Sequence record: NC_017969.1
Length of the DNA: 64,000 nt
Origin: Escherichia phage vB_EcoS_AKFV33
Reading direction: 5' to 3' (one strand)
Below are positions 4,196-4,720 of this stretch, in pieces. Every line of letters begins with the position of its first letter. The first letter of the stretch is position 1. The position numbers and the translations under genes are program-made. A model generated the notes under the pieces. That model did not search any database. It was not told the origin of the DNA and was given only the letters and a program-made list of their open reading frames with translations.

Positions 4196-4224
4196 ATTAT
4201 ATTAGAAATTTAGCTTCATAGCAA
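4196..4224 (-). promoter_or_regulatory. early promoter (TTGCTA-17-TATAAT) upstream of tRNA-Ser/tRNA-Met
   Basis: motif with downstream ATCTTATAAATT box. Confidence 0.5.
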
Positions 4225-4720
4225 GAAAATTTTTCAAGTTTTCGGTAGACATCTCATCCACATCTACAGGAGAAACAAAGCCGTTTAATTTTCTAGCAAA
4301 TTTTTCACCCGCAGGATCGTTATTCCCGACAGCTACCAATTTAAAAGGTAATAATTTCAGTTGCTTTAATAACGCTTTTCCTGGAGAAGAACCCAACATT
4401 GCTAGGGCTGGATAACCAGCGTTATGTAACGCAACTGCCTTAAATACAGATTCAGCGATCAATACTACTTTTTCATCTCCATTGAGAGTTTCTAATCCCC
4501 ATACACACTGGGTAGTAGAATAGGTAAAATATTTAGCTTCAAAGGGACACTTACCATGACCTTTTGGAGCAGAAGGATTATAAGTTTGATAGCCTCTCAA
4601 CATCCCAGAGAAATCATACAACGGGACTGTTAGCCATCCTTCCGGACTTAACCAGCAATGATATTTATCTGCATCAAATCCTCTAGATAGAAGATGTTGT
4701 GTTAATTCATCAACACCCAT
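4202..4720 (-). CDS. Toprim-domain protein resembling the catalytic core of the DnaG-like primase encoded at 36255-37145
   Basis: VVLIAESVF...LGS...VAVGNNDPAGEKFA pattern parallels VLILVEGIF...VVILLDNDASGNKAA of the primase in this window; no zinc finger. Confidence 0.45.
   Translation of the reverse strand: MGVDELTQHLLSRGFDADKYHCWLSPEGWLTVPLYDFSGMLRGYQTYNPSAPKGHGKCPFEAKYFTYSTTQCVWGLETLNGDEKVVLIAESVFKAVALHNAGYPALAMLGSSPGKALLKQLKLLPFKLVAVGNNDPAGEKFARKLNGFVSPVDVDEMSTENLKNFLAMKLNF

Follow-up and report, generated by a model that had tools for sequence, protein, structure and literature searches.

A DnaG-like gene in the tRNA island of a T5-like phage and its probable identity as the retron counter-defence gene rad

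The rad locus in the tRNA island

The DNA analysed here, a 64-kb stretch referred to below as the window, belongs to a T5-like phage (Tequintavirus). Its tRNA island comprises 11 tRNAs between positions 666 and 5873, all found by ARAGORN on the minus strand, and one more that Rfam places at 4011-4085. Within the island lies a gene at 4202..4720 on the minus strand, confirmed as a real open reading frame by ORF analysis and encoding 172 amino acids followed by a stop. It is the orthologue of T5.076 and SP15 ORF75, and is called rad in what follows. Its ATG is the earliest start available after the preceding upstream stop: the window offers no start further upstream. An AGGAG ribosome-binding site on the same strand (4728-4732) stands 8 nt ahead of this ATG. 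The region around rad is 99.7% identical to that of Phage NBEco002.

Directly 5' of the gene, a consensus scan detects a promoter-like element, TGGAGA-16-TATAAT (4751..4778, minus strand). A second one, TTGCTA-17-TATAAT (4196..4224, minus strand), overlaps the 3' end of rad, ahead of the next tRNA. Both match in position promoters annotated around T5.076 in phage T5, the first P15a and the second P15b. An intrinsic terminator with a 13-bp stem and a T-run (4762..4793, minus strand) closes the upstream Band-7/SPFH gene (4817-5764; Pfam Band_7, E=3e-17). As this terminator isolates rad from the Band-7/SPFH gene, rad appears to form its own transcription unit.

Immediately downstream, tRNA-Ser(GCU) occupies 4092-4180 on the minus strand and is recognized by both ARAGORN and Rfam RF00005. 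The additional tRNA at 4011-4085, also on the minus strand, was missed by ARAGORN; in relatives it is annotated as tRNA-Met or tRNA-Ile(CAU). The RF00005 scores of the two are 60.5 and 38.2 bits. The placement of rad directly upstream of tRNA-Ser is the one seen in T5, SP15, PK7 and Es2. Contrary to T5, the window lacks genes T5.077-079 between rad and the Band-7 gene, and it lacks hegA too. No ATPase or reverse transcriptase neighbours rad in the window.

The encoded protein is 98.3% identical over 172 aa to ORF75 of phage SP15 (NC_048627.1), with three differing residues (G2N, A17T and D133N), and 96% identical to T5.076. It matches PHROG 849 at E=7e-61. The label of T5.076, 'DNA primase', derives purely from an InterPro Toprim signature. 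SP15 ORF75, which corresponds to T5.076 or ORF071 of T5, has been named Rad, for retron anti-defense (Azam et al., bioRxiv 10.1101/2023.03.15.532788; Nat Commun 2024, PMC11555353). The published positions of the mutations agree exactly with the 172-aa form and not with the 189-aa form annotated in SP15. The length of 189 aa that is quoted for Rad goes back to the upstream start annotated in that phage.

Kinship with the DnaG-type primase

The window also encodes a canonical DnaG-type primase at 36255..37145 on the plus strand, composed of a zinc ribbon, a DNAG_N domain and a Toprim domain (TIGR01391 dnaG, E=1e-21). Its gene is flanked by those of the replicative helicase and the DNA polymerase, and this helicase-primase-polymerase module is 32 kb away from rad. 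The initial annotation saw in the rad product a primase-like Toprim protein akin to the catalytic part of this primase, and both this kinship and the reported lack of a zinc finger are borne out. Pairwise BLASTP is insufficient for the former: although it pairs the correct segments of the two proteins, the match is not significant (E=0.22). Similarly, Pfam Toprim models score below their gathering thresholds on the rad product. Profile and structure methods are required, and a profile of 60 diverse Rad-family members aligns with the window primase over 134 columns at an hhalign probability of 93.8% (E=1.8e-7), with ~21% identity between the two proteins.

The alignment pairs K63-Y64 of Rad with the PKYL of the primase (DnaG motif III), E90 with the Glu of VEGIFD (motif IV), residues 133-135 with DND (motif V) and the VDVDEM stretch with KDPGDL (motif VI). 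When the PDB sequences are searched with the family profile, all significant matches are DnaG primases (E 8e-7 to 3e-5), and the alignments to the Aquifex and S. aureus enzymes reach upstream into motif II. From the profile pairing of motifs III-VI and these extensions into motif II, it follows that Rad, though compact, is a DnaG RNA-polymerase domain in complete minimal form, with motifs II-VI, and more than a bare Toprim: the RNA-polymerase-domain fold, with its N-subdomain and Toprim, is present.

The rest of the primase is missing. Rad has no match to Zn_ribbon_DnaG, and its three cysteines form neither a CxxC nor a CxxH pair. It has no helicase-interaction domain, as the chain stops ~15 residues past the Toprim fold. 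With both the zinc-binding template-recognition domain and the helicase-binding domain lost, Rad is not expected to serve as a replicative primase.

Rad belongs to a large family of its own. An exhaustive profile search proved to be required, since a word-indexed homologue search gave just 6 proteins. At E<=1e-3 it recovers 804 representatives, each standing for a cluster at 50% identity; at E<=1e-10 there are 355. In 60 diverse homologues, residues G43, Y64, G75, E90 and D135 are invariant, and L10, R13, Y47, F93, G138 and D153 are conserved in at least 90%. At position 94, which corresponds to D269 of DnaG, some clades have Lys and others Asp; position 133 is mostly Asp, with Gln in one distant natural subclade. 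Since the conserved positions take in both a metal site of the DnaG type and the Tyr of motif III, the family likely possesses a working active site. A 'degenerate paralog' of the primase, as the initial annotation had put it, does not fit a separate family of 804 representatives that has invariant catalytic-type residues and is only ~21% identical to the primase.

On the DNA, the conserved catalytic-type core extends from E90, in ESVFKA (motif IV), to D135, in the DxD of motif V (4316..4453, minus strand). The acidic VDVDEM motif, which holds D153, D155 and E156, lies 3' of the core at ~4253-4270 on the same strand. The metal-site-type acidic residues of Rad align with the E265/D309/D311-type positions of DnaG. 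The window protein retains E90, D135 and D153/D155/E156, which are conserved in the family, but Asn replaces the leading Asp of its DxD, and the D269-equivalent is Lys in the T5 clade.

Counter-defence phenotype, mechanism and the D133N allele

The phenotype of Rad is published, and the gene is not a new one. In the peer-reviewed study (PMC11555353), ORF75 allows phages to escape both retron-Eco2 and retron-Eco7. The preprint reports that ORF75/Rad, located in the tRNA-rich region, rescues them from retrons Ec67, Ec78, Ec83, Ec48 and Se72; that Rad lowers both msDNA and the msr-msd ncRNA, with the transcripts of the RT and the effector unaffected; and that substitutions R13E, P33T, I88T, D135H and E156H each weaken it (10.1101/2023.03.15.532788). 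All five of these residues are present in the window protein at the same positions. Degradation of the retron ncRNA by Rad is a claim of the preprint only; it was dropped from PMC11555353, whose authors say that the mechanism cannot yet be determined. According to a paper on BF23, the TOPRIM 'primase' of the corresponding region of T5 was 'later established as Rad', and a later structural paper speaks of 'the anti-defense protein Rad'. Against a general anti-retron role, another later paper finds that the 'retron inhibitor gene' ORF75 gives T5 no help against the FORC 82 retron. A literature search on T5.076, or on a phage Toprim protein with RtcB or RNA repair, found nothing relevant.

The experimentally shown role of the gene is thus retron counter-defence, not replication. 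We put at about 70% the probability that the window gene is the Tequintavirus Rad, a dispensable early counter-defence gene that enables escape from retron immunity. For annotation, the label Rad is warranted over 'DNA primase', which most databases keep, RefSeq T5 and PHROG 849 included.

In the mechanism that best explains these data, Rad would act as a minimal DnaG RNA-polymerase domain, built of an N-terminal β-subdomain and a Toprim and carrying motifs II-VI. Its acidic, DnaG-like metal-binding site (E90, D133/D135 and D153/D155/E156) would work catalytically on nucleic acid. That the metal site is catalytic we infer from the weakening of Rad by D135H and E156H and from the invariance of E90 and D135. 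The target would be a nucleic acid needed for retron function, and the sole experimental proposal is the degradation of the msr-msd ncRNA, the precursor of msDNA. The chemistry may be that of a nuclease, not of nucleotidyl transfer. That a Toprim domain can cut structured RNA has a precedent in RNase M5. Among the initial suggestions for this gene was a nuclease with RNA or DNA as its target; it agrees with the only proposal in the literature, based on the drop in ncRNA and msDNA, but that proposal was left out of the peer-reviewed version.

Some features of the protein point elsewhere. The retained N-subdomain and the K-Y pair of motif III speak for nucleotidyl transfer and hint at binding of an NTP or a template, given that a pure Toprim nuclease such as RNase M5 needs neither. 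A full minimal DnaG domain makes this chemistry a candidate beside cleavage. Moreover, in retron Eco2 it is the decay of msDNA that activates the caged Toprim effector, so that depletion of msDNA alone cannot explain how preassembled complexes are disarmed. A purely retron-directed role also sits uneasily with 804 family representatives, probably a wider spread than such a role would obviously require, and with the recurrent genomic partners of the family, which are tRNA-end repair enzymes and not retron-related genes.

It is also conceivable that Rad does not catalyse anything and is a binder or decoy, sequestering msDNA, ncRNA, the retron RT or a Toprim-type effector in its primase-like nucleic-acid-binding groove. 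The Lys at the D269-equivalent position in the T5 clade, the Gln tolerated at position 133 in a subclade and the Asn found here would all suit such a protein, as would a weak match of Rad, limited to the Toprim core, to the RTasDnaG-like model of PADLOC (E=1e-5), which describes the DnaG-like partner of defence-associated reverse transcriptases. However, invariant E90 and D135 and a nearly invariant D153 are what one usually sees in a functional metal site, activity drops with D135H and E156H, and Rad has no detectable likeness to the Toprim effectors of retrons, AriB, OLD or Gabija, none of which it matches in PADLOC. We consider such a non-catalytic mode of action very unlikely. The 'regulatory decoy' of the initial annotation is likewise without support, both for want of an effector match in PADLOC and because the two charge-altering substitutions, D135H and E156H, weaken the protein.

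The Asn at position 133 is specific to this genome. Codon 133 (4322..4324, minus strand) reads AAT as the result of a private, single G-to-A change at base 4324, which turns GDNDPAG into GNNDPAG. The codon is GAT in T5, SP15, PK7, Es2 and NBEco002; the residue is Asp in all close relatives aligned, and none of the 66 phage records matching a 61-nt query carries D133N. Judged from the sequence, the replacement of a metal-ligand-type residue would argue against anti-retron activity of this allele, which is plausibly attenuated. It need not abolish function, since the distant natural subclade has Gln at the same position. The G-to-A change may also originate from a sequencing error.

The near-identical block shared with NBEco002 (3315-6220) contains nine differences, five of which fall in rad, including a nonsense codon (E83*) in NBEco002, the nearest relative. 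This hints that selection on rad was relaxed or altered in this lineage (post-hoc binomial p about 0.01). A binomial hotspot test over the whole aligned region was discarded as meaningless, as a mosaic divergent segment starts below 3315. The natural D133N and nonsense alleles in sister phages are ready comparisons. Where this phage is put to use, e.g. in therapy cocktails, its escape from retron-bearing hosts may be weaker owing to the D133N allele.

Family distribution, genomic context and known systems

Most members of the Rad family are stand-alone proteins of 165-190 aa. A scan of ~185,000 species-representative cellular genomes with the T5-type Rad pattern gave no matches, and the pattern of the EGvFDA subclade gave ~9 full-length ones, mostly in MAG contigs. 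Viral contigs contain at least 194 relatives, many of them from environmental phages. Given this near-absence from cellular genomes, the family is essentially phage-borne. The orthologues of jumbo phages, among them Erwinia phage Deimos-Minion and Dickeya phage JA11, have a conserved +1 frame change in common, an observation added by this analysis.

T5-like phages can do without the gene. It was lost by 8-kb deletions in T5n and SP15m and by a 4-kb deletion in BF23; besides the nonsense codon of NBEco002, there is a frame break in T5_ev219. T5-like and Jersey/Kaguna-like phages possess a separate canonical primase or helicase-primase besides Rad. Repeated loss or breakage, together with a separate primase in the carriers, designates rad as an accessory gene and not a replication gene. 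The idea that Rad might be the only primase in small phages was rejected when the helicase-primase of the Jersey/Kaguna-like phages was found (phrog_3228, E=5e-296).

We surveyed the genomic context at 80 viral loci, which reduce to 27 groups when loci whose target proteins are >=80% identical are joined. Part of this context is reminiscent of replication. In Jersey-like phages and in contig L014, the start of the rad-like gene overlaps the stop of an SNF2-family helicase gene that belongs to the replication module; in L031 a gp32-like SSB is encoded directly upstream, and one subgroup (P0060) is fused to the zinc-finger domain DUF3268. Combined with the full DnaG RNA-polymerase-domain fold and motifs, and with the database annotation 'DNA primase', these links could describe an auxiliary DNA primase or priming subunit. 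It would synthesize or lengthen short RNA primers, possibly alongside a helicase, when replication is restarted or depends on recombination, or during repair. We hold this to be highly improbable. The phages in question have their own canonical primase or helicase-primase, and rad is dispensable and has been repeatedly deleted or broken in T5-like lineages. The protein is devoid of zinc-binding and helicase-binding domains, and in T5-like phages its gene resides in the accessory tRNA region, far from the replication genes. Counter-defence remains the sole demonstrated phenotype.

The most specific recurrent partner is another enzyme, the CCA-adding tRNA nucleotidyltransferase, encountered in seven independent instances. 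It is fused to Rad in P0079 and P0100, in opposite domain orders. Its gene adjoins or overlaps the rad-like gene in L021, L024, L094 and the cultured Vibrio phage F100, where the neighbour matches 'multifunctional CCA addition/repair protein' (E=2e-117), and lies ~4 kb away in L096. This link between Rad and CCA-adding enzymes has been newly documented in the present analysis. Other partners include an RtcB RNA ligase encoded directly 3' of the rad-like gene in Erwinia phage Deimos-Minion and a HAD-type phosphatase fused to Rad in P0106. A calcineurin-type phosphoesterase is encoded ~1 kb upstream in L038, and clustered neighbours of ~245 aa occur in L027, L030 and L040. Further fusion partners or neighbours are an Arr-like ADP-ribosyltransferase-fold protein (P0023, P0066), a cytidylyltransferase (P0057), GNAT and Mom. 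The NAD-salvage genes NAMPT and NMNAT-Nudix, themselves counter-defence genes, are found near the rad-like gene in L019, L023 and L034. tRNA arrays flank it in six non-T5 contigs.

Two readings of this context may be offered. Rad-like proteins may have tRNA or RNA-end substrates in common with their partner enzymes; the number and variety of the links to CCA-adding enzymes are the main reason to favour this reading, and their recurrence in fusions and operons points to tRNA as a candidate substrate. Alternatively, counter-defence genes may merely tend to lie together and to fuse, as they do in anti-defence islands and polyvalent proteins, so that no new biology is needed.

The first reading would have the Rad family act on tRNA, or more generally on RNA 3' ends, and not on the retron ncRNA. 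The mini-DnaG domain would trim damaged tRNA ends, fill them in or make them ready in some other way, together with CCA-adding enzymes, RtcB and end-healing phosphatases, and retrons would be overcome because the effectors tested kill through the cutting of tRNAs. Beyond the seven CCA-enzyme links (two fusions, four adjacent or overlapping genes and one at ~4 kb), the RtcB of Deimos-Minion, the phosphatase of P0106 and the phosphoesterase of L038, this reading draws on the location of the gene within tRNA arrays, both in T5-like phages and in the six unrelated contigs. Eco2 and Eco7, the two retrons with peer-reviewed rescue, both kill through tRNA cleavage, and the retained motifs II-III of DnaG would suit template- or NTP-dependent chemistry.

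On the other hand, about 72 of the 80 loci have no tRNA within 6 kb, and in Jersey-like phages the rad-like gene follows the SNF2 helicase. The partner enzymes went undetected in the 64-kb window, where single-sequence phmmer, a method of limited sensitivity, found no CCA-adding enzyme, RtcB, PNKP-type HAD, metallophosphoesterase, NAMPT, NMNAT or SNF2. The effectors of Ec48 and Se72 are not known to be tRNA nucleases. Rescue from these two retrons in the preprint, as well as the drop in ncRNA and msDNA, is left unexplained by an activity at the tRNA level. Finally, co-location and fusion may reflect the plain clustering of counter-defence genes that is a theme of Iyer et al. Overall, we judge an action of Rad on tRNA or RNA 3' ends to be unlikely.

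A broader formulation, to which we give a still guarded reception as quite unlikely, makes the whole family a widespread phage RNA-end enzyme that rebuilds immunity-damaged tRNAs with the help of CCA-adding enzymes, RtcB or end-healing phosphatases, and not a retron-specific inhibitor. One possibility is that the 3' strand of the acceptor stem would be trimmed, or refilled on a template, before CCA addition. Thg1-like proteins act in a comparable manner at tRNA 5' ends. Were this true, a restored tRNA pool would bring escape from retrons as one of its effects. Our preferred reading of the window gene is still that of a dispensable gene for escape from retron immunity.

Contrary to DnaG, the primase fragment of T7 gp4, T4 gp61 and Twinkle, Rad has no CHC2 zinc-binding domain. 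Relative to DnaG-type primases, its N-terminal subdomain is shortened, the C-terminal helicase-interaction region is absent, and in the T5 clade the D269-equivalent position 94 is occupied by Lys. Rad also differs from them in that it is not required for growth and that its known phenotype is counter-defence.

RNase M5 has neither the N-subdomain nor motifs II-III of DnaG, and bears a C-terminal substrate-binding domain of its own. With RNase M5 and the small stand-alone Toprims (PDB 6z2b/6tg6, 2i5r, 2fcj), the Toprim half of Rad alone superposes, over ~87-105 residues, and Rad gives no sequence-profile match to RNase M5. The Mycoplasma 'DNA primase-like protein' MG010 (TIGR00646) resembles Rad in being a zinc-finger-less, truncated DnaG that occurs beside a full primase; the match is weak (E=1.5e-3, 18 bits against a cutoff of 261), and it is a different family.

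In their paper on polyvalent proteins, Iyer et al. do not cover the Rad family, and they state that the Toprim primase modules described there are never phage-encoded. On the side of defence, the RT-Toprim of retron Eco2, AriB of PARIS, OLD, GajA of Gabija and the DnaG-like protein associated with the RT of DRT systems have the Toprim catalytic fold in common with Rad, and several such defence-side Toprim proteins cleave tRNAs. In contrast to all of these, Rad is encoded by phages and acts against defence.

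Disrupted rad genes in T5-like phages and a frame change in jumbo phages

The rad gene of the window (4202-4720, minus strand) has a damaged counterpart in its nearest relative, phage NBEco002, where the codon for E83 is replaced by a premature TAA stop and the gene (1501-2019 of locus L004) is annotated as two separate 'DNA primase' coding sequences. It also lies in two pieces in Escherichia phage T5_ev219, whose matched stretch counts 515 bases instead of the expected 516. Together with the known deletions of rad in T5n, SP15m and BF23, these two breaks show that the gene is often lost or broken.

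A +1 frame change occurs at the same position, between the 'WG.E' and 'VFLTESVFK' motifs, in all jumbo-phage Rad orthologues: those of Erwinia phage Deimos-Minion (L003, ~4190-4260), Dickeya phage JA11 (L087, ~3190-3260) and Serratia/Klebsiella phage KpSz_1 (L088). Conserved motifs are kept in both halves. Where the genes of these phages differ across the VFLTESVFK stretch, the change is silent in the +1 frame, which is therefore under selection. The overlap region of the Deimos-Minion and KpSz_1 genes yielded no start codon in frame with the second half. Jumbo-phage rad is a candidate for programmed +1 frameshifting; alternatively, it may be a split gene conserved in this form.

Neighbours and fusion partners of the Rad family

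The gene for a CCA-adding tRNA nucleotidyltransferase recurs as a fusion partner, overlapping gene or neighbour of Rad-family genes in unrelated phages, cultured Vibrio phages included. Such enzymes are fused to the Rad-like domain in the representatives P0079 and P0100, and are encoded at five of the viral loci that carry a Rad-family gene (L021, 4392-5990; L024, 6730-8310; L094, 135-1583; L096, 595-1869; L118, 3625-5034). We found no mention of this link in the papers on Rad that we consulted.

Three further loci have an NAD-salvage gene just upstream of the Rad-like gene: NAMPT in L019 (3641-5071) and L023 (3652-5019), and an NMNAT-Nudix fusion in L034 (3102-5880). L019 and L023 also hold tRNA arrays. 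The grouping of NAD-salvage, Rad-like and tRNA genes looks like a composite counter-defence island.

Three fusion proteins of differing architecture share a conserved peptide, 'YFQMGGGIK..LYNK.NGK...PG[VI]AALRE', N-terminal to the Rad-like domain (residues ~130-170 of P0041, ~15-50 of P0154 and ~25-60 of P0067). Judged by eye, the N-terminus of P0041 also resembles an H-Y-E signature of ADP-ribosyltransferases (LYHGT ... YLYLTT ... E); a Pfam search of these regions gave no match. Separately, in this isolate of Jerseyvirus jersey (L002, 2515-4980), the helicase of the SNF2 family encoded immediately upstream of the Rad-like gene carries an intein, composed of a Hint domain and a LAGLIDADG homing endonuclease; related helicase copies in locus L013 and in Kagunavirus are without it.

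The tRNA region of the window compared with its relatives

Directly after tRNA-Ser, an additional tRNA gene at 4011-4085 (minus strand) scores 38.2 bits with Rfam RF00005, whose gathering threshold is 29. ARAGORN does not report this gene, which is the counterpart of the tRNA-Met or tRNA-Ile(CAU) annotated in relatives. The minus-strand ORF at 3604-3789 codes for 61 residues with two cysteine pairs of the CxxCxGxG type (CPECRGIG ... CPNCNGTG); relatives annotate it as 'antitermination protein Q-like', and its Pfam match is a faint zinc-ribbon only.

Against NBEco002, the window has a sharp mosaic boundary at 3315, with a divergent stretch at ~2702-3314 and near-identity over 3315-6220. The ~610 bp below this position contain 75 differences and the ~2.9 kb above it only 9, a contrast suggestive of a recombination junction amid the tRNA region's small ORFs.

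The surroundings of rad also differ from those in phage T5 (L001, 500-2500). There, rad and the Band-7 lipoprotein gene are separated by three opposite-strand genes, T5.077-079, and by a bidirectional terminator and a mapped nick site, whereas in the window (compared over 4721-4816) the Band-7 gene directly abuts rad. The window also lacks the homing endonuclease gene hegA, which T5 carries downstream of its tRNAs.
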